A DNA stretch of 48,368 bases from Minisyncoccota bacterium (GTDB lineage Bacteria; Patescibacteriota; Minisyncoccia; Phycocordibacterales; UBA9973): contig JAGOOX010000001.1 in NCBI GenBank assembly GCA_017992305.1, positions 1 to 48,368 of the forward strand. Reading direction: 5' to 3'. The translations under genes were made by a program, and so were the position numbers. This document shows positions 35,011 to 44,616 of this stretch, in pieces. The first letter of the stretch is position 1. Every line of letters begins with the position of its first letter. The notes beneath the pieces were generated by a model, which was given only the letters and a program-made list of their open reading frames with translations, ran no database searches and had not been told where the DNA came from.

Positions 35011-35391
35011 ATGCAGATAATTGAATTTGTAAAACAACAAAATGAAAAGTTTACCTTTTACCAAGAAGGGGAGGTTTGGGTTTTAAAATTTAAAAATAAA
35101 GAAAAACAAAAACAAGCTGATGAATTTTTTATTAATTTACTTCAGGACTTAAAATTGCGGTCAATATATAAATACGTGCCAGTATTTAATGAATCTGAAG
35201 TTTCTGCCTTTATGGCTTATTTAAAAAAACAAGGTTTTACTATTAGGTGTCGTGATACTGAATTAGAAGAAAAACTTAAACATGCTTTGGTAATAATTAC
35301 CAAAAACAACCCACAAGATATTTCAGATCTGGTTAATGAAATGACTTATCACGATCAATTATTGATCGCCGATAAAATCGCTAAAGCGTAA
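35011..35391 (+). CDS. Hypothetical 126-aa protein, tightly coupled to the metalloprotease gene
   Basis: ATG 35011 lies one nucleotide after the upstream TAA (35007-35009). No motif recognised. Confidence 0.55.
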   Translation: MQIIEFVKQQNEKFTFYQEGEVWVLKFKNKEKQKQADEFFINLLQDLKLRSIYKYVPVFNESEVSAFMAYLKKQGFTIRCRDTELEEKLKHALVIITKNNPQDISDLVNEMTYHDQLLIADKIAKA

Positions 35392-35401
35392 ACCTAAATT
35401 G

Positions 35402-35474
35402 TCCGCCCGGTTGGATTCGAACCAACGACCCTCCGCTTAAGAGGCGGGTGCTCTACCAACTGAGCTACGGGCGG
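35402..35474 (-). tRNA. tRNA-Lys (anticodon CTT)
   Basis: The reverse complement folds as a cloverleaf: acceptor CCGCCCG/CGGGCGG, D-arm GCTCAGTTGGTAGAGC, anticodon loop CTCTTAA, T-arm GTTGGTTCGAATCCAAC. Confidence 0.9.
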
Positions 35475-35507
35475 TTTTTGTTTACCGCCAAAATCGTTGG
35501 CGGTTTG

Positions 35508-35589
35508 TGCCCCGGGCGAGACTCGAACTCGCACGGCCTACGGCCTGGGGATTTTAAGTCCCCTATGTCTACCATTCCATCACCAGGGC
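35508..35589 (-). tRNA. tRNA-Leu (anticodon TAA), long variable arm
   Basis: Acceptor GCCCTGG/CCGGGGC (one G.U), anticodon stem-loop GGGGA-CTTAAAA-TCCCC, variable arm GGCCGTAGGCC, T-arm GCGAGTTCGAGTCTCGC. Confidence 0.9.
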
Positions 35590-35625
35590 ATGTCGTATTA
35601 ATTTAAAACCGCCAATGCGGTCATG

Positions 35626-35697
35626 AGGTCTAGGGCGGAATCGGACCGCCGTATAAAGGTTTTGCAGACCTTTGCCTTACCACTTGGCGACTAGACC
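35626..35697 (-). tRNA. tRNA-Cys (anticodon GCA) with the non-canonical T-loop TCCGATT
   Basis: Acceptor GGTCTAG/CTAGACC, anticodon stem-loop AAGGT-CTGCAAA-ACCTT, T-arm GGCGG-TCCGATT-CCGCC. Confidence 0.85.
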
Positions 35698-35712
35698 GTC
35701 GTAGTACCTTTG

Positions 35713-35794
35713 TGCCCAGGAAAGGACTTGAACCTTCACGGATTACTCCACTAGTTCCTAAGACTAGCGCGGCTACCAATTACGCCACCTGGGC
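35713..35794 (-). tRNA. tRNA-Leu (anticodon TAG), long variable arm
   Basis: Acceptor GCCCAGG/CCTGGGC, anticodon stem-loop CTAGT-CTTAGGA-ACTAG, T-arm GAAGGTTCAAGTCCTTT. ORF 35712..35930 is an artefact over this gene. Confidence 0.9.
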
Positions 35795-35862
35795 TTATTT
35801 ATTTTTTAACCTACAAATAGCATTCTACACGAAAAAAATATTTTTTCAATACCTCGCGCGTG

Positions 35863-36195
35863 CTATTTATCAGCGTCGCGAAGTAGGCCATTTATGTGGC
35901 GAAAGTTTTTCTCGCCGTCGTCAATCATAACATCTAAATAGGGTATAGTGTGGGTTTTAATACGGCTTTGGCAAAACTCACGAATACCTGATAGGCTACG
36001 TTTTAAAAATCCAAAAGCGGCGTTCTCCTTGTCCTCGGGTATGCAAGTATAAAAAATCATAGCTTTGCGGCCCTTTTCATCCAATTGTACACGGGTAATT
36101 GTTATCATTGATGTTGTGCCACCTTCGCGCGCAACATATAAACCTGCGGCTTCGCGAATGGCTTCTTCTATTCTGTTGTGTTTTATGTTGTTCAT
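35863..36195 (-). CDS. rbfA: Ribosome-binding factor A
   Basis: 110-aa protein immediately downstream of infB (conserved infB-rbfA order). RbfA-like pattern R..R....I.E......VT.V..... Confidence 0.75.
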   Translation of the reverse strand: MNNIKHNRIEEAIREAAGLYVAREGGTTSMITITRVQLDEKGRKAMIFYTCIPEDKENAAFGFLKRSLSGIREFCQSRIKTHTIPYLDVMIDDGEKNFRHINGLLRDADK

Positions 36196-36204
36196 ATTTT
36201 TATG

Positions 36205-37722
36205 CTATTTACTAACTACCTTAAAAGCTTCTAAATGGTCTCCGTGTTCAATCACTACTTTTGATTCAACCGTTAGGCCACATTCATTACCTTCATTTAA
36301 TTCTTTAACCTTAATTTTTTGGCTTTGAATTTCAATAATTGTGCCAGTACCTAGCTCCTCACCAGCGCGAATAATTGCAACTTGGTTGTGTACGTTAATG
36401 TGTCCAGTATCAATACGGGCGCCAACAACTTGTTTGTCTTTCATGTTGCTGAAAAACTTTAATACTTTCATTGTGCCTAGTGTTTCGCGAATTTCTTGGC
36501 GGGGGCGTAGATTTTCAATGTATTCTTCTAGCCACTCGGTTAGTTTGTAGATAATGTCAAATATTTCAACACGAACACCTGCTTGTTCGTTAATGTCGCG
36601 GGCAATGTTATCGATTTTTACATTAAAGCCAATAATGACTGCGTCTTTGTCGCCAGTAGCTAGTTTTATGTCGCCTTCGCTAATGTTACCAACGCCGGCT
36701 GAAATGATTTTATAGCTAATACATTCTTTTTTAATTTTACCAATTTCACGCAAAATTGCCTCGTTTGTACCAGCAACGTCAGTTTTAATAATTATTGGTA
36801 TTATTTTGTCACCCTCTGCGCATACGTTTTCATCAAGCAGGCTTTTGCCTTGTTTGTATTCTGCACACAGCGCCTCGGCTTCTTTTTTAGTTTTAACGGT
36901 CTCAAATATTTCGCCAACTTTTGGCACCATATTAAAACCAGTCAATGTTATTGGTTGTGAAGGTCCAGCCGTGTCAATGCTTTTACCAAAATAATTTTCA
37001 AGCATGCGGGTACCTACAAAGCTTTGACCAGCAACAATAAATTCACCTTTTTTAACAACACCGTCTAGTATTACAAGGGTTGCCTTTGAGCCTGTTTTTG
37101 AATCAATGTGTGATTCTATAACTAAACCTGTGGCTCCATTTTTATAATCGCCCTTAAGTTCGTTCATGTCGGCAACTAATAATACTGTTTCTAGTAGGTC
37201 ATCAATACCTGTACCTTTGGTTGCCGAAATTGGCACAAATGGTATGTCGCCACCTAGACCCTCTAGGTAAACTTCGTATTCAAGTAGTTCATATTTAACT
37301 TTTTCAATATTTGCATTTGGTTTATCAATTTTATTGATTGCTACAACATATGGCATGTTGGTTTTTTTAATCAATTCAATAACTTCTTTGGTTTGGGCTT
37401 TAATACCGTCTTCGGCTGAAATAACTAGTATGGCAATATCAGCAACAGTTGCACCACGTGAACGCATACCGGTAAAAGCCTCGTGACCTGGTGTGTCAAG
37501 AAATGTAATGCGACGCATATTTTTCTCGCGGTCTGTATGTTCAACTTCATATGCTGAAAGATGCTGTGTTATACCACCAGCTTCGCGGTCTACAATGTTT
37601 GTTTTACGAATGTAATCAAGTAGGGTTGATTTGCCGTGGTCGACATGGCCCATGACAACAACGATTGGTGGGCGTGAGGCAACATTACTCTCTTTATTAG
37701 AAATGGTATTTTTAGCGTTCAT
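36205..37722 (-). CDS. infB: Translation initiation factor IF-2 (505 aa, lacks the long N-terminal region)
   Basis: G-domain VVVMGHVDHGKSTLLD, DTPGHEAF, NKID, plus C-terminal IF-2 domains. Confidence 0.95.
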   Translation of the reverse strand: MNAKNTISNKESNVASRPPIVVVMGHVDHGKSTLLDYIRKTNIVDREAGGITQHLSAYEVEHTDREKNMRRITFLDTPGHEAFTGMRSRGATVADIAILVISAEDGIKAQTKEVIELIKKTNMPYVVAINKIDKPNANIEKVKYELLEYEVYLEGLGGDIPFVPISATKGTGIDDLLETVLLVADMNELKGDYKNGATGLVIESHIDSKTGSKATLVILDGVVKKGEFIVAGQSFVGTRMLENYFGKSIDTAGPSQPITLTGFNMVPKVGEIFETVKTKKEAEALCAEYKQGKSLLDENVCAEGDKIIPIIIKTDVAGTNEAILREIGKIKKECISYKIISAGVGNISEGDIKLATGDKDAVIIGFNVKIDNIARDINEQAGVRVEIFDIIYKLTEWLEEYIENLRPRQEIRETLGTMKVLKFFSNMKDKQVVGARIDTGHINVHNQVAIIRAGEELGTGTIIEIQSQKIKVKELNEGNECGLTVESKVVIEHGDHLEAFKVVSK

Positions 37723-38170
37723 TGAGTAATTCTTTTTCTTCGTCTGATAATTCTTGTTCGGCTGACCAGTTAGTTATTGGTTTAGCAAAAATAGATGTTT
37801 TTTCGCGAGCATAAAGTGTTGACATAATAACACCATTGCCTTCTTCGTCGGTTATTTTTGTTGTAAAGCTTTGTGCGCCCGACATGTCACCCCAGGCATT
37901 GAATCTAATTGTTTTAGGTGTCTTTACTGATTTTTTAATACGGTTTTCGTGATTATCGATTGTCTCCTTGGTTTTATCAAGGCTTTCATAGATGTCTTCT
38001 ATGGCAACACGATAGGCAACTAGTATGTCGTCAATGTTTTGGGCTTTGCCTCCTTTTAAAAGCTTCTTTAGGCGGGTGTATAAAACTAAATGTAGAACCA
38101 GGGTAAAAACCGATACTATACCAATAGCTACGATTGCAATAATTTCAGCTTTAAGTGCGCCGCCCAACAT
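37712..38170 (-). CDS. DUF4446-like membrane-anchored protein
   Basis: N-terminal TM, then RFNAWGDMSGAQSFTTKITDEEGNGVIMSTLYAREKTSIFAKP, typical of DUF4446. Overlaps the infB start by 11 nt. Confidence 0.6.
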   Translation of the reverse strand: MLGGALKAEIIAIVAIGIVSVFTLVLHLVLYTRLKKLLKGGKAQNIDDILVAYRVAIEDIYESLDKTKETIDNHENRIKKSVKTPKTIRFNAWGDMSGAQSFTTKITDEEGNGVIMSTLYAREKTSIFAKPITNWSAEQELSDEEKELLNER

Positions 38171-38214
38171 AAATCGCAGTTTACCACAAAATCATTGTCT
38201 TTTCAATGGTTTTT

Positions 38215-38223
38215 TGCTTAAAT
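38215..38223 (+). promoter_or_regulatory. Extended -10 (TGcTTAAAT) 6 nt upstream of ATG 38230; leaderless geometry
   Basis: TG 38215-38216, TTAAAT 38218-38223. Confidence 0.45.
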
Positions 38224-38229
38224 CAATAG

Positions 38230-39474
38230 ATGTGGAATAATCTTGTGAATAAGTGGGGTTTTATGGCAAATAGGTATCGAAATCTATACCTAGACACAGC
38301 CTCGGCAACCGAAACTGACAAGTCGGTTGTTTTGGCCATGCACCATGCCGAAGGCCTGTTTGCCAATCCTTCAAGTTTGCATAAATTGGGTGTTTTGGCT
38401 CGTAATAAAATCGAATCTAGCCGCGCGACTGTCGCTAAATTTATAAGCGCACATACTGACGAAATTATTTTTACGGGTAGTGGTACCGAGGGTGACAACT
38501 TGGTAATTTTGGGTGTAATAAAATTTGCAAAATTAAAAGGTATTAAAATACCGCATGTAATTGTTTCAAGTATTGAACATTCGGCTGTGATTGGTTTGGT
38601 TGAAAAACTAGAATCACAAAACGAAATTAGCGCTAGTTACTTACCAGTTGATGAAAACGGTGTAGTTGATTTAAAAGTTTTACCTGAATTGATTAATGAG
38701 AACACTGTTTTAATTTCAATACATTTGGTTAACAATGAATTGGGTACTATCGAGCCAGTTAGGGAGGTTGCAAAAATTATAAATAATTACAAAAAACAAA
38801 ATCAATTAACGTACCCACTGGTTCATACTGACGCTTGTCAGGCGAGTGCACTAATTAAAATTAACGTAAACCAATTAGGTGTCGATCTACTAACCATAAA
38901 TGGGCAAAAAATGTATGGGCCAAAAGGGGTGGGTGCATTGTTTGTAAAAAGATGCACACCTATCGAACCTGTTTTCGTTGGGGGCGATCAGGAATTTGGT
39001 TTTAGGCCCGGCACCGAATCATTACCACAAATTGTTGGTCTTGCTTGTGCTTGCGAGATTACGTCAAAACGCCAAGAAAGTGATTTTATAGCACTTACTT
39101 ATTTGCGAAACTATTTTGTAGCCCAGCTTGAAAAAATCCCTAACACAATCATTAACGCTAAAAACGTACCAGTGAGCCCCCATATTATAAATGTTGAGTT
39201 TGCTAATATTTCTAGCGAAACATTGATTTTATACCTAGATGCCCGAGGTATTTATGCTAGCAGTAAAAGTGCCTGCAAGATGGATGACCCCAATGAGTCA
39301 TACGTGCTAAAGGCCATAAAACATGCTAAAATAGATGAACAAGAGGGGAAAGTAGATGATTTTGGCAGCATTCGTTTTTCACTAGGTCGAGATACTAATA
39401 AAAATGACATTGACTATGTTATTAAAAATCTTAAAGAAATTCTAGATATTTTAAAATATGATTCCATCATTTAA
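38230..39474 (+). CDS. Cysteine desulfurase (class V aminotransferase, NifS/IscS-like)
   Basis: YLDTASAT, HTDACQA, PLP-lysine region NGQKMYGPKGVGALFV, active-site loop SSKSACK. Alternative start ATG 38263. Confidence 0.85.
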   Translation: MWNNLVNKWGFMANRYRNLYLDTASATETDKSVVLAMHHAEGLFANPSSLHKLGVLARNKIESSRATVAKFISAHTDEIIFTGSGTEGDNLVILGVIKFAKLKGIKIPHVIVSSIEHSAVIGLVEKLESQNEISASYLPVDENGVVDLKVLPELINENTVLISIHLVNNELGTIEPVREVAKIINNYKKQNQLTYPLVHTDACQASALIKINVNQLGVDLLTINGQKMYGPKGVGALFVKRCTPIEPVFVGGDQEFGFRPGTESLPQIVGLACACEITSKRQESDFIALTYLRNYFVAQLEKIPNTIINAKNVPVSPHIINVEFANISSETLILYLDARGIYASSKSACKMDDPNESYVLKAIKHAKIDEQEGKVDDFGSIRFSLGRDTNKNDIDYVIKNLKEILDILKYDSII

Positions 39475-42181
39475 TCAATTTACAACCAAAGCCAAAGAGG
39501 CTATCAAACGAGCTCATGAATTTGCAATTGAACGTGGTCAAAATCACGTCAACTCTTTGCACTTGCTAGCAGCACTTATATTCCAAGAAGAGGGAATTGT
39601 TTTTTCAATGCTTGAATCTATGAACATTGATGTATTACTACTATCTGACAATGTTGTTGATTCGCTAGAAGAACCGACCAATCAAAGTGTTTTGTCGCAA
39701 TCATACCAAATGTATTTGGCTCAAGATTTGGCAAGCATATTAGAAATCTCACCAAACATTGCTAAATCAACTAGTGACGAATTTGTTTCAACTGAACATT
39801 TGTTTTTAACTATGCTTGAAGTCGAATCACCAGCTTTGGAGTTATTAAAAAAGTTTGAAGTTGACCCAGCTAGTGTTCGTAAATTTATTGTTGAAAATAA
39901 AAATAATAAAAACCCAGGCGCTAGTGCTGAAAAGAAGAATCGTAATTTGTCAAAATATACTCGCAACCTAACCGACCTAGCACGCGCCGACAAACTTGAC
40001 CCAGTCATTGGGCGAGATACTGAAATAATGCGTGTTATGCAAATACTTTCACGCCGTACAAAAAATAATCCAATTTTAATTGGCGAACCAGGCACTGGTA
40101 AAACCGCTATTGTCGAGGGTTTGGCTGTTCGTATATCAAAAGGCGACGTGCCTGAATCACTAAAAGACAAAGAGGTTGTGTCATTAGATATTGGTCTATT
40201 GCTTGCAGGTACAAAATACCGTGGCGAATTTGAAGATCGTTTGCGTAACATAATCAAAGAAGTTGAAAAATCTGACGGTAAAATAGTTTTATTTATTGAT
40301 GAAGTGCACAGTATTGTTGGCGCAGGTAATACCGAAGGTGGTGTTGATATGGCCAATATGTTAAAACCAGCGCTTGCCCGTGGCGAATTAAAGGCAGTGG
40401 GCGCTACAACCCTAAAAGAGTATCAAAAATATATTGAACGTGACCCGGCACTTGCCCGACGTTTTCAGCCTGTTTATATTGACGAACCAAGTGTCGAAGA
40501 TTCAATTGCAATTTTACGAGGATTGAAAGATAAATATGAACTATTCCATGGCGTGCGTATAACTGACGATGCGATTGTGTCAGCAGTTGAATTATCATCA
40601 CGGTACATTACAAGTCGATTTTTGCCTGACAAGGCAGTTGATTTGATCGACGAGGCATCATCGACATTGAAAATGTCACTTGAAAATAAACCGGCCGTGC
40701 TAGAAGAAGCCGAGCGCAAAATTATGCGTTTAGAAATTGAACGTCAAGCGTTAAACAATGAACTATCACTTGAAAGTTTGACTCCAAAACAGATCAAAGA
40801 CATTAAATCTCGCATAAAAGAGGTTGAAATTAACATTGCCGATATTGGTGAGAAAACTAACGAAATTAGCGTGCGTTGGAAGAACGAAAAAAGCACTTTA
40901 GTTGATATGCGTGCGATGAAAAAAGAGCTTGAACAATTGCGTATCGAGGCCGAGAATGCCGAAATGCAAAGTGATCTAGGTTTAGCCGCCGAAATTCGTT
41001 ATGGCAAGATCCCAAATATTGAAAAAAATATAGAACAAAAGCTTGATAAACTACGCAAACTACAAAAATCTCGTCGCATTTTAAAAGAAGAGATTAATAC
41101 CGAAGACATTGCTAATGTCGTGTCTCGTTGGACAGGTATACCATTATCGCGCATGCTTGAAGAGGAGCGCGCAAAATTAATACGCATGGAGGCCGAGCTT
41201 GCAAAACGGGTCAAAGGCCAAAGTGAAGCAATTGAAAAAATTGCTAGCGTGATTCGTCGCAATCGTGCCGGTATTTCAGACCCAAACAAACCAATTGGTT
41301 CATTTATATTCTTGGGCCCAACCGGTGTTGGTAAAACCGAATTAACTAAAACATTGGCTGAATTTTTGTTTGACGATGAAAAGGCCCTAATACGTGTAGA
41401 TATGAGCGAATACATGGACAGACACAGTACCTCAAAATTAGTTGGTTCGCCACCTGGTTATGTTGGTTATGACGAGGCAGGGCAGTTGACCGAGGCCGTA
41501 CGCCATCGCCCATATTCAGTTGTATTGTTTGATGAGGTTGAAAAAGCTCACCCCGAGGTTTTTAATATGTTATTGCAAGTATTAGACGAAGGTATGTTGA
41601 CCGATTCAAAGGGCCGCAAGGTTAACTTTAAAAATACTGTTATTGTGTTGACCTCAAACATTGGTTCGCAACATATTCAAAAGATGGAAAGTTTAGGTTT
41701 TGGCAATAATGACCAATCACAGGTTTACACTCAAACCAAAGAGAAAGTATTGGAGTCATTAAAAGACCACTTTAGGCCTGAATTTTTAAATCGAATTGAT
41801 GAAACAATCGTGTTTGATATTTTAACACCTGAAATTGTTCGTGAAATTGTCGATGTTCGTATTGCCGAAATTCGCGAACGTTTGGGTATAAAAGGTATTA
41901 ACTTAATTGTTAGCGGTAATGCGATTGATTTGATGGCTAAAATTGGTTACGACCCAGCATATGGCGCGCGCCCATTAAACCGATTAATACAAACTAAAAT
42001 ATTAAACCCAGTCGCTAATCACATAATTGCCGATGGTGTAACTGCGGGTGAGAGCGTGCTAGTTGATGCCCTAAATGACGAACTAATAGTTGAAACTAAA
42101 AAGAAAAACAAAAAAACTGTTTCAAATATTATGAACGAAACCGGTGTTAAAAAACCTAAAAATTCAAAAAGCAAGAAATAA
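39458..42181 (+). CDS. clpB: AAA+ disaggregase ClpB
   Basis: Clp N-domain, two Walker A sites ([16 protein letters not shown]), long middle coiled coil, [10 protein letters not shown]. Overlaps the upstream gene by 17 nt. Confidence 0.95.
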
Positions 42182-42228
42182 TTATAAAAGCCCACATAAA
42201 TTGTGGGCTTTTATACATGCACGGCCGC

Positions 42229-42474
42229 CTACATGTATGTTTTTACTTTCTCAAGCATCAGCGTATATGTTTCTTTACCTAGTACGCTTTTGCTACCTTC
42301 AATAAGTTTTTCGGAACTTCTTAAATGAGCTCGGCCGGTACTTGAAACCTTGCCTTCAAAATGTGACATTAGCTGATTAACTTTTTCGCGGCTGCTTGCT
42401 TTTGCTGATTCAATGATTTTTTGGATGATCTCGGTTAGAGTCATTTGTTCGGGGGTTGTTGTTTTTTGTGCCAT
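42229..42474 (-). CDS. Hypothetical small protein (81 aa)
   Basis: ORF convergent with clpB, sharing the bidirectional terminator at 42187-42215. Confidence 0.45.
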   Translation of the reverse strand: MAQKTTTPEQMTLTEIIQKIIESAKASSREKVNQLMSHFEGKVSSTGRAHLRSSEKLIEGSKSVLGKETYTLMLEKVKTYM

Positions 42475-42532
42475 ACTTATTACTATTTAAATATAGATTA
42501 CGCCTGTCATATGTCCTTGTCAAATAAGGGCA

Positions 42533-42561
42533 TTGAAAGACATGGGCTTTTGTGCTATACT
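42533..42561 (+). promoter_or_regulatory. Promoter TTGAAA-17 nt-TATACT (TGc extended) for tRNA-Tyr
   Basis: TTGAAA 42533-42538, TATACT 42556-42561. Confidence 0.6.
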
Positions 42562-42589
42562 GTTTTTCTATATATAAATAGAAATGTAT

Positions 42590-42672
42590 GCGTCGATGGC
42601 GGAGTGGTCAATCGCATTTGACTGTAAATCAAACGACTTATGTCTACGCAGGTTCGAATCCTGCTCGGCGCA
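42590..42672 (+). tRNA. tRNA-Tyr (anticodon GTA), long variable arm
   Basis: Acceptor GCGTCGA/TCGGCGC, anticodon stem-loop TTGA-CTGTAAA-TCAA, T-arm GCAGGTTCGAATCCTGC. Confidence 0.9.
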
Positions 42673-42953
42673 CAAATAATAAAAACCGAAGGCAACGGCC
42701 TAAGGTTTTTATTTTATGTGGCAGAGAGGTTCGAACCGTAGGCGCACATTTTATAATGCGCGTTTCGACCGTAGGAAGAGGCGAATCCTGCTCGGCGCAC
42801 AAATGATAAAAACCTAGGTTATAACGGCCTAAGGTTTTTATTTTTTGTGGCAGAGAGGTTCGAACCGCAGGCGCCAATTTTTAAGAAATAAAAACTGTGC
42901 GTCTCGACTGAAAGGAGAGGCGAATCCTGCTCGGCGCACAAATGATAAAAACC
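42655..42953 (+). repeat. Three direct copies of the tRNA-Tyr 3' end plus flank (33 nt), within a ~127/139-nt tandem repeat
   Basis: cgaatcctgctcggcgcacaaat(a/g)ataaaaacc at 42655-42687, 42782-42814 and 42921-42953. aacggcctaaggtttttatttt.tgtggcagagaggttcgaaccg is also duplicated (about 42694-42738 and 42823-42867). Confidence 0.85.
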
Positions 42954-42974
42954 CTTTTAAAGCAAAGGGTTTTT
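42947..42974 (+). terminator. Rho-independent terminator after the third repeat copy
   Basis: AAAAACCCTTT-taaagc-AAAGGGTTTTT. Confidence 0.75.
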
Positions 42975-42978
42975 ATCA

Positions 42979-43007
42979 TTGACAAATAATCTTTTATCTG
43001 CTATAAT
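42979..43007 (+). promoter_or_regulatory. Promoter TTGACA-17 nt-TATAAT (TGc extended)
   Basis: TTGACA 42979-42984, TATAAT 43002-43007. Confidence 0.65.
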
Positions 43008-43027
43008 ATACAAGACTGATCAGCACC

Positions 43028-43495
43028 ATGAAAAAAGAAAAATATAGAAAAATAATCGTAGCACTTTTAATGTGCTTTGTTGCTAATATTGCTTTAGCAC
43101 AGAACAATGTTGGAATTATTCGTTTCCCAAAAAACACCAAAATAACAACAACGGGTCATTTTGTGACCGTGTGTACAGATTCACTAATAAAAATTAAAGG
43201 TTATTGTGTTAGGCAAGAAAAAGCGGTTTACACTAATGCAAAAACACAAAACAACTCTAATGGTCCCTCAACAAGAGGCTTTACAATATATCATTTGCCA
43301 GGCGAGGACACTCTCAATTACCGTGACTATATATATTTTGATAACATTTACATAATGTATCAAGGGGAAAAAAGTATATTGGTCATGCCGTTTTTATCTA
43401 ATTTCGAACAATTAGATTTAGGTCTGATTAAAATATATGAGACATACCTAGCAATAGTTCGAGACTCTAACCAAAACATTTACCAAGCAGAATAA
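43028..43495 (+). CDS. Secreted hypothetical protein (signal peptide ...IALA-QNN)
   Basis: MKKEKYRKIIVALLMCFVANIALAQ signal. No recognisable domain. Confidence 0.55.
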   Translation: MKKEKYRKIIVALLMCFVANIALAQNNVGIIRFPKNTKITTTGHFVTVCTDSLIKIKGYCVRQEKAVYTNAKTQNNSNGPSTRGFTIYHLPGEDTLNYRDYIYFDNIYIMYQGEKSILVMPFLSNFEQLDLGLIKIYETYLAIVRDSNQNIYQAE

Positions 43496-43539
43496 TTTTC
43501 TGTAAACGATACTAAAAGGCATGCTCCAAAAGCATGCCT

Positions 43540-44181
43540 TTATTTTTTTACAAAAACATTAATACGTCTTTCGCCCCACAATTTGTATTTATTTTTATTT
43601 AAAAATAGCTCTAGTTTATGCAAATTTTTCTTGGGCAACATTACATCTTTGAAGTCATCGATCGATTCAAACTTCCATTCGGTTTCGCCCCAAAATTCGC
43701 TAATCATTTTCATTTTTGATTCGTTCATTATTGTTTCGTAGGCTTTGGCTTTTTGTTTAGTTTCATCGCCATCGAAACAATCAAAGTTTATTTCGGCTTC
43801 GTACAAGGTGCCATTTGTGCCTGGTTCAATTACTACAATCGTGCCCCTGTTTTTTAAAACTCGGCATGCCTCGGTCAGTGCCTTTTTACCGCTATTAATG
43901 TGGTGCATTGATAATGTAAAAATAACAATGTCAAAAGTTTTTTCGCTAAATGGCAAACTTTCAGCCTGGGCTACGGTATAGTTTATGTCGTCATCGTAAT
44001 TGTTTTCCTTGGCATAGGCAATACTTTGTTTGTCGGGGTCAATTGCCTCGATTTTAACACCGCGAATATGCCCAAATTGCTGGGTTCTAAATCCATTACC
44101 ACAGCCAATTTCAAGCACGTATTGGCCCTTTAGTTCGACTTTTTTAAATAGGTTTTTCATGAAGTGGTCTTTGACAATCAT
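43540..44181 (-). CDS. Class I SAM-dependent methyltransferase
   Basis: Motif I VLEIGCGNGFRT; post-I AIDPD; FDIVIFTLSMHH; GTIVVIEP. Confidence 0.8.
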   Translation of the reverse strand: MIVKDHFMKNLFKKVELKGQYVLEIGCGNGFRTQQFGHIRGVKIEAIDPDKQSIAYAKENNYDDDINYTVAQAESLPFSEKTFDIVIFTLSMHHINSGKKALTEACRVLKNRGTIVVIEPGTNGTLYEAEINFDCFDGDETKQKAKAYETIMNESKMKMISEFWGETEWKFESIDDFKDVMLPKKNLHKLELFLNKNKYKLWGERRINVFVKK

Positions 44182-44278
44182 TTGGTTATTCTAGCACAAA
44201 AGGGCTTTTTTGGCTTGGTAAATTGGTCCACAGCGGGTCGCTTGTTTATTTTACGATTTATGCTAGAATGGACGGATT

Positions 44279-44440
44279 ATGGCATGGTATAAAGACAAGC
44301 TTGTAAAGCTAATAAACAAAGACACCAAAGAGGTGATTTTTACGCGTAAAAACAAAAAGCAAGTTCAACGCAAATTAGAGATGAAAAAGTTCTCAAAGAA
44401 ATTGCAAAAACGTGTTGTTTTCAAAGAGGCTAAAAAGTAA
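44279..44440 (+). CDS. rpmG: 50S ribosomal protein L33
   Basis: 53 aa: MAWYKDKLVKLINKDTKEVIFTRKNKKQVQRKLEMKKFSKKLQKRVVFKEAKK matches the L33 C-terminal consensus (...K.L.L.KF.P....H..FKE.K). Missing from the ORF track (<60 aa). Terminator at 44460-44497. Confidence 0.8.
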   Translation: MAWYKDKLVKLINKDTKEVIFTRKNKKQVQRKLEMKKFSKKLQKRVVFKEAKK

Positions 44441-44539
44441 AATATCACAAAAAAACAAAAAAATCTCAAATAATTTGAGATTTTTTTGTTTTAAAATAGC
44501 TTAACTTTTATTAAAAAATCTGTTAGAATGCGTGGGCAT

Positions 44540-44610
44540 GGGTCTATAGTTCAGTGGTAGAATTCTCGTCTCCAAAACGAGCGACCGAAGTTCGAATCTT
44601 CGTGGGCCCG
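44540..44610 (+). tRNA. tRNA-Trp (anticodon CCA)
   Basis: Acceptor GGGTCTA/TGGGCCC (two G.U), anticodon stem-loop CTCGT-CTCCAAA-ACGAG, T-arm CGAAGTTCGAATCTTCG. Confidence 0.85.
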
Positions 44611-44616
44611 CAAATT

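Follow-up and report, generated by a model that had tools for sequence, protein, structure and literature searches.

Repeats linked to tRNA genes have been known in Escherichia coli since 1978 (Egan & Landy 1978; review PMC8144298). These tRNA-linked repeats (TLR; Egan & Landy 1978, Rudd 1999, reviewed in PMC8144298) were first seen as a 178-bp sequence repeated 3.14 times after tyrT, and E. coli K-12 carries 22 of them at ten loci, with one to five per locus (PMC8144298). A TLR lies directly behind a tRNA or 5S rRNA gene, on the same strand, and ends in the same 18-19 bp as that gene (PMC8144298). Three rRNA-linked TLRs give rise to transcripts that are processed beside the repeated 18 nt and bind Hfq and CsrA; no function is known for the tRNA-linked members (PMC8144298). 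In Rfam the family is named RtT (RF00391); the helix that closes its consensus structure pairs an antisense version of the tRNA end (GGGGAAGGAU) with a sense version (AUCCUUCCCC). According to the RefSeq annotation of 5,426 complete E. coli genomes, one to four RtT copies follow tyrV, and some genomes have none under the match. This within-species polymorphism in RtT copy number at tyrV (locus L097) parallels the difference between the sister species G000 and G005 described below.

The window analysed here, the whole 48,368-nt stretch of a Patescibacteria assembly (G000), contains a tRNA-Tyr gene whose 3' end occurs three times. The locus resembles TLR in several respects. Its two repeat units lie directly downstream of the tRNA gene on the same strand, and their 3' end is identical to that of the upstream gene, over 33 nt instead of 18-19 nt and with one A/G difference in copy 1. 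As in TLR, antisense and sense copies of the tRNA end form a closing helix, which in the window includes a 7-nt bulge. Two tandem units are present, within the range of one to five copies seen at TLR loci, and the units belong to a family that is likewise linked to several different tRNAs. We think that the triplicated tRNA-Tyr end probably represents two stacked copies of a small, non-coding, non-autonomous selfish element that resides at tRNA 3' ends. The link between this Patescibacteria element, which we named type W, and the TLR/RtT architecture of E. coli is new, and no description of type-W-like elements in CPR bacteria was found in the literature.

Layout of the tRNA-Tyr locus

Both ARAGORN and Rfam placed the single tRNA-Tyr(GTA) at the same coordinates (Table 1). 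Its end, from C56 in the T-loop to 15 nt beyond the discriminator base, forms a 33-mer (cgaatcctgctcggcgcacaaatNataaaaacc) that recurs as a direct repeat family of three copies with spacings of 127 and 139 nt, thus confirming the initial annotation, which had reported the tRNA-Tyr 3' end with its flank in three direct copies. The two units delimited in this way are closely similar in their 5' blocks (42694-752 versus 42823-881, 93% identity) and in their 3' blocks (42757-814 versus 42896-953, 90% identity), and are distinguished by an indel in the middle. Neither ARAGORN nor Rfam called a tRNA in either unit on either strand, in agreement with the earlier statement that copies 2 and 3 are not functional tRNAs. 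Permuted, split or minus-strand tRNAs were rejected as an explanation, since neither strand yields a cloverleaf.

Table 1 Features of the tRNA-Tyr locus (window coordinates)
Feature	Position	Strand	Remarks or basis
Sigma-70-like promoter of tRNA-Tyr, TTGAAA-17-TATACT	42533..42561	+	only + strand promoter-like site upstream of the units
Genuine tRNA-Tyr(GTA)	42590..42673	+	only tRNA-Tyr of the assembly; no encoded CCA
33-mer copy 1 (the gene's own end), T-loop C56 to discriminator plus 15-nt trailer	42655..42687	+	
Hairpin H1, tRNA trailer with unit 1 anti-trailer	42671..42720	+	23-nt arms, 83% complementary
Unit 1 antisense arm: anti-trailer GGTTTTTATTTTATGTG, GCAG (anti-T-stem), AGAGGTTCGAACC (anti-T-loop)	42703..42737	+	sequence, fold
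Unit 1 core	42723..42788	+	type-W model, 61.1 bits
Unit 1 hairpin P2 (shortened)	42743..42762	+	type-W model alignment
Unit 1 hairpin P3	42762..42782	+	type-W model alignment
Unit 1 sense arm = 33-mer copy 2	42782..42814	+	sequence
Hairpin H2, copy 2 trailer with unit 2 anti-trailer	42798..42849	+	repeat analysis
Unit 2 antisense arm	42832..42866	+	anti-acceptor deletion identical to that of unit 1
Unit 2 core	42852..42927	+	type-W model, 85.1 bits
Unit 2 hairpin P2 (longer)	42872..42901	+	type-W model alignment
Unit 2 hairpin P3	42901..42921	+	type-W model alignment
Unit 2 sense arm = 33-mer copy 3	42921..42953	+	sequence
Perfect 17-bp hairpin	42941..42980	+	rising strand is the copy 3 trailer

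Promoter-like sites on the + strand were found upstream of tRNA-Tyr and downstream of the array only, and a promoter search inside both units gave none. Since the units have no promoter of their own, any unit RNA would be a by-product of read-through from the tRNA transcript. The anti-trailer GGTTTTTATTTTATGTG of each unit and the trailer before it together form a terminator-like hairpin; that of unit 1, H1, has a T-run. The perfect hairpin at the end of the array probably serves the tRNA-Tyr transcription unit as its native terminator.

As the assembly is a metagenome bin of 52 contigs, we considered whether the tandem copies were created during assembly. The units differ from each other by many substitutions and an indel, and an independent assembly of the sister species carries tRNA-Tyr together with a unit 1 orthologue, which renders such an artefact extremely improbable; comparable stacked arrays in many other genomes speak against it as well.

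Architecture and fold of type-W elements

Both units are copies of type W, a dispersed non-coding element of ~65-100 nt that consists of an antisense copy of the local tRNA 3' end, a conserved core with two hairpins, and a sense copy. In reverse complement, the antisense arm carries the trailer of the local tRNA, the 3' strand of its T-stem and its T-loop back to G52; the sense arm reproduces the local tRNA sequence from C56 of the T-loop onward. The core meets both arms inside the T-loop. The core comprises, in this order, GYAGG, hairpin P2 and hairpin P3 (GUUUCGA-CY-loop-RG-GA-GAGGC). A covariance model (R1; GGAWTCGAACC-GNAGG-P2-P3-GAGRGCGAWTCC), built from nine cores and to be read with rough E-values, matched both window units. 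The antisense arm is usually long, reaching about 70 nt if the trailer hairpin is included, and the sense arm ranges from 7 to >33 nt across copies.

Pairing of the arms closes each window unit as a long hairpin, with a folding energy of -39.7 kcal/mol for unit 1 (z = -3.6) and -43.4 kcal/mol for unit 2 (z = -4.9). The closing helix is broken by a 7-nt bulge formed by the acceptor strand, and the anti-acceptor part is deleted from the antisense arm of unit 1. With the acceptor strand bulged out, the window units form no real minihelix, and true acceptor/T minihelices were rejected given the missing acceptor complement. A reading of the arms as retrovirus-like primer-binding sites was likewise discarded: the arms include A58 and unprocessed trailer, indicating that they were not copied from mature tRNA.

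The core hairpins P2 and P3 are real and backed by covariation. In an alignment of 58 copies, 95.6% of the cells at paired positions were paired and double changes occurred at 13 of the 16 pairs, with 126 double-change cells versus 26.7 in shuffled alignments and at most 14 in slid controls. An independent de novo approach with MAFFT and RNAalifold (25 copies) recovered both hairpins and found compensatory changes at 14 of 22 pairs. A U.G pair was conserved in 52 of the 58 copies, which assigns the fold to the tRNA-sense strand only; the folding molecule could be RNA or single-stranded DNA.

Both arms track the T-loop of the local tRNA. Of 46 copies, 33 had a sense 7-mer equal to C56-C62 of the local tRNA and 30 had an antisense 11-mer that is the reverse complement of local G52-C62, versus 9 matches among 1376 control comparisons with tRNAs that have a differing T-loop. 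Some copies (L038, L085, L052; genomes G069 and G043) showed an extra small hairpin exactly between anti-acceptor and anti-T-stem, and at these loci the 3' half of another core type (GGAATCGAAAAGC...GAAAGATTCC) comes after the type-W core, so that the loci are mosaics of nested and truncated elements.

Despite the common plan, no homology to RtT was detectable. RF00391 gave no match in the window at E<=10 (criterion >=45 bits) and none in 101 genomes of the family. Conversely, R1 aligned in register to all four RtT copies behind tyrT with 4.4-14.7 bits, which is noise level genome-wide, and when R1 was run over the whole K-12 genome the sole match was an unrelated one of 14.3 bits. Given these null and noise-level scores, type W works and is built like TLR without being a detectable relative. 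A resemblance of internal motifs to RtT (UUCGA...GC-loop-GC-GAGAGNGCG) is unproven. In contrast to TLR, the type-W core is shorter and AT-rich with different hairpins, and its arms are longer, running from C56 or G52 into the trailer, whereas the arms in E. coli stop at the encoded CCA.

Distribution and comparison with a sister species

Within the 609-kb assembly, four of 31 tRNAs are followed by a copy of their own last 14 nt. The core found behind tRNA-Tyr also lies behind tRNA-Ile(TAT) on contig C10 and tRNA-Arg(GCG) on contig C39, and each of these type-W copies terminates in the 3' end of its own tRNA; tRNA-Gln(CTG) on contig C2 follows the same logic with a different core. Two further genes, tmRNA (G000:C10:12047-12411) and tRNA-Glu (G000:C16:13227-13299), are followed by a sequence that matches their own 3' end in antisense (score 20 versus a maximum of 17-18 in 200 shuffled controls), and these matches may represent further elements with other cores.

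The type-W core is confined to one family of the phylum. R1 matched 57 of 151 genomes of the taxonomic family (38%), distributed over 24 of 45 genera with 1-7 copies each; in 150 genomes taken from the phylum's other families it matched nothing. Even within a genus the occurrence is patchy, with two to three of seven genomes positive. A search for an exact core motif across 185,579 species hit only 14 contigs, each labelled Patescibacteria; no viral contig contained it. Rfam searches of the window region and of one full-length copy returned tRNA only; type-W elements are absent from this database.

A same-strand tRNA precedes 46 of the 58 aligned copies, mostly at a distance of 21-74 nt, with six copies lying farther out within stacked arrays. 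The tRNAs concerned cover 14 anticodons (four for Arg, two each for Gln and Leu, and one each for Val, Lys, Asn, Cys, Tyr and Ile). Most of the copies not linked to a tRNA are situated at contig ends. Three type-W copies with tRNA-like arms (L081, L082 and L088 in G090, G144 and G059) had neither a tRNA nor an Rfam RNA within ~400 nt upstream, and two of them were preceded by a shared conserved sequence (...GGTTCTRACTTGTTCCAATT...). Stacked arrays similar to that of the window occur in many genomes. Frequently P2 and the sense arm are truncated and nested fragments are present; some other loci combine two core types in nested, truncated and mixed form. Behind tRNA-Gln(CTG) at L031 (G009:C21), an array of at least three units alternates between two core types, each unit ending in the tRNA-Gln 3' end.

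The sister species G005, whose flanks are 79-90% identical to those of G000, allowed orthologous tRNA loci to be compared. At tRNA-Arg, G005 has an empty site (...TTCCTACCGAGAGCACA|CAATAAC), and in G000 that 17-mer, the tRNA end, occurs twice in direct orientation on either side of a 68-nt insert. At tRNA-Ile, G005 lacks ~97 nt that make up the anti-T-loop, the core and a sense arm of 21 nt; their place would be past the native terminator, beside a remnant that is older and degenerate. For tRNA-Tyr, a single unit was found in G005 (contig JACCDN010888319.1), with 93% identity to unit 1 and 83% to unit 2. The "empty" sites of G005 could also have arisen by precise deletion across the direct repeat, in which case they would not represent the ancestral state.

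The surroundings of tRNA-Tyr differ between the two species as well. The flanks 35251-42180 and 43540-44611 are collinear, and the interval in between (42182-43539, from the ClpB-like gene to the methyltransferase) is variable: in G005 the module of tRNA-Tyr and unit is inverted relative to G000, the adjoining small ORF differs, and ~2 kb of unrelated DNA takes the place of a 155-aa ORF. The initial annotation had named invariance of the locus across the lineage as an argument against its own reading; the locus varies, with one unit in G005, two in the window and an inverted module. Its suggestion that the downstream genes are remnant cargo is not supported for the methyltransferase, which is syntenic in G005; the 155-aa ORF alone is missing from the G005 interval.

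How the two window units arose is a separate question. Unit 2 keeps P2 segments that both unit 1 and its G005 orthologue lack and thus is not a copy of unit 1. A 6-nt, locus-specific deletion in the antisense arm is common to both units, which fits a local tandem duplication with later change equally well as two separate insertions. The history may be one of old tandem duplication with subsequent loss in G005, or one of core exchange. These data also bear on the proposal of a purely local origin, in which the 3' region of tRNA-Tyr was duplicated in tandem or by slippage, the spacers are decaying pseudo-tRNAs and no mobile family is at work. The common deletion and the 93% identity of the 5' blocks favour it, 33-nt direct repeats would drive unequal crossing-over, and copy number is variable in the E. 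coli arrays, too. However, the core does not derive from tRNA-Tyr and has homologues behind tRNA-Ile, tRNA-Arg and a dozen more tRNAs across 57 genomes, and the P2 segments of unit 2 are absent from unit 1 and its orthologue. As a full explanation local duplication is therefore refuted; it can account for the size of the array and not for the element, and we rate it as unlikely.

Across the family, cores group by lineage and not by tRNA type. A core tree, weakly resolved on 63 columns, grouped the cores by genus with 28 label changes versus 40.9 in shuffles, none of 200 being as low. Near-identical cores stand behind the Arg, Tyr and Lys genes of one genome, pointing to spread or concerted evolution between tRNA genes.

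Function, mobility and significance

A functional small RNA, co-transcribed with the tRNA and acting as a regulator or decoy, has a modest chance of being the better description and would be compatible with mobility. Its sense arm, mimicking a tRNA 3' end, would allow tRNA-maturation enzymes (RNase E or Z, RNase P, the CCA-adding enzyme) to set free an RNA that is stable and structured. The strong covariation, the conserved unpaired motifs and the strand-specific U.G pairs in the tRNA-sense strand are equally expected of a functional RNA. In addition, the orientation is always that of the tRNA, the elements lie within the tRNA transcription unit before the final perfect terminator, and at the Arg locus no terminator separates tRNA and element. 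The TLR-derived RNAs RrA, RrB and RrF of E. coli behave in this way, but the remaining 19 TLRs of that species have no known function (PMC8144298). Against such a role stand the patchy occurrence (38% of the family's genomes, two to three of seven within a genus), the clean absence in the sister species, and the frequent truncation of P2 and sense arm together with the nested fragments. Moreover, each window unit is preceded by a terminator-like hairpin, and with the 7-nt acceptor bulge there is no real minihelix.

The initial annotation had offered att-like scars or a tRNA-derived repeat array, and of these the array comes close to the truth. The scar part, its main reading, proposes attL/attR remnants of larger elements with an integrase that repeatedly entered and left the tRNA-Tyr site. 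The T-loop is a classic crossover sublocation of tRNA-targeting tyrosine integrases (Williams 2002). In line with this, the repeat starts in the T-loop at C56, a canonical sublocation, and the interval between clpB and the methyltransferase varies between G000 and G005. Like tyrosine-integrase att sites, the locus shows a direct repeat of the tRNA 3' part from the T-loop, with the gene kept intact. Unlike att sites, type W has no integrase or cargo, measures ~65-125 nt, includes an antisense copy and uses one core for many tRNAs, which a single attP could not serve. No integrase was found within the window, and neither an integrase gene nor a kb-sized element lies between the repeats. The only tyrosine recombinase of the assembly is encoded on contig C33, so that the earlier remark about a missing integrase nearby was accurate, as was the view that the intervening units are too small to be integrative elements. 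The idea of the 33-mer as attP on a mobile element is not supported: it matched no viral contig, nor did the core motif, and a metagenome scan returned only the contig of the G005 locus. The units are intact ~65-100-nt family members rather than random remnants, complete with structured core and arms matching the local tRNA. We consequently consider serial integration and excision very improbable.

Small size, lack of coding capacity, hairpin formation, dispersal, non-autonomy and patchy occurrence are properties that type W shares with REP/BIME/REPIN and MITE elements. It differs from MITE and REPIN in that its ends are copies of the target and not fixed terminal repeats, that the duplication length is variable (7 to >33 nt), and that it is confined to tRNA 3' ends in a genome without RAYT or Y1 transposase. 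Indeed, no Y1 transposase/RAYT (PF01797) was found in the genome, which is 87.6% complete, and searches for Y1 transposases, tyrosine recombinases and reverse transcriptases identified no mobilising enzyme for type W. Neither an excised nor a circular form of the element was seen. The reverse transcriptase search revealed a protein with a YSDD motif (G000:C2:1291-3048; open frame of 585 codons, 582 aa from the first ATG) that matched retron-type models best (PADLOC RT_II-A, E = 7.6e-21). It is notable in a 0.6-Mb genome and the only retron-type enzyme found there; no link to the tRNA elements was found.

The reading we favour, a selfish element, is in agreement with type-W copies that occupy a tRNA locus in one species and are missing from the orthologous locus of its sister, that stack in tandem, decay and stand behind many tRNAs. 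We propose that the element spreads at the DNA level between the tRNA genes of a lineage, with the two junctions of core and arms placed inside the conserved palindromic T-loop (TTCGAA) and its arms re-copied from, or converted to, each new target tRNA. This might proceed through template switching during replication, guided by microhomology in the T-loop, or through a host recombinase that exchanges strands on the folded tRNA-sense strand. Arrays would then expand and contract by unequal recombination between the repeated tRNA ends. Sense arms identical to the tRNA could also reflect selection rather than youth or gene conversion.

There is precedent for folded recombination sites. In CTX-phi, other Xer-exploiting elements and integron attC sites, an inverted repeat on a single strand folds up as a double-stranded mimic of the chromosomal target. 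Such sites tolerate strand-specific pairing and rely on host or trans-acting recombinases, with strands exchanged at dif for CTX-phi and at attC for integron cassettes. By analogy, and as a lead only, type W may be likened to these sites, from which it differs in showing no sign of a recombinase, single-stranded circles or a dif-like site. A bolder and rather doubtful extension holds that TLR-type elements, from E. coli to Patescibacteria, are the smallest known site-specific integrating elements and act via the folded tRNA-sense strand. The arms of the exposed sense strand would fold into a duplex replica of T-arm and acceptor region, and a host enzyme would exchange strands with the real tRNA gene inside the T-loop; candidates here would be the one tyrosine recombinase that the genome encodes or, through template switching, the replisome. 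If true, this would explain the target-copying arms, the T-loop position of both junctions and the stacked arrays.

The TLR architecture is now seen in a different phylum, with an unrelated, covariation-supported core, in 0.6-Mb genomes and with clean empty and filled sites. In Patescibacteria it arose or is maintained independently, and its presence in a second phylum points to a general process at tRNA 3' ends, not an enterobacterial oddity. The many young copies and several core types provide comparative material for working out this process. In practice, the elements account for recurrent "duplicated tRNA end" signals in Patescibacteria annotation and mark spots prone to rearrangement, such as the tRNA-Tyr module inverted between sister species.
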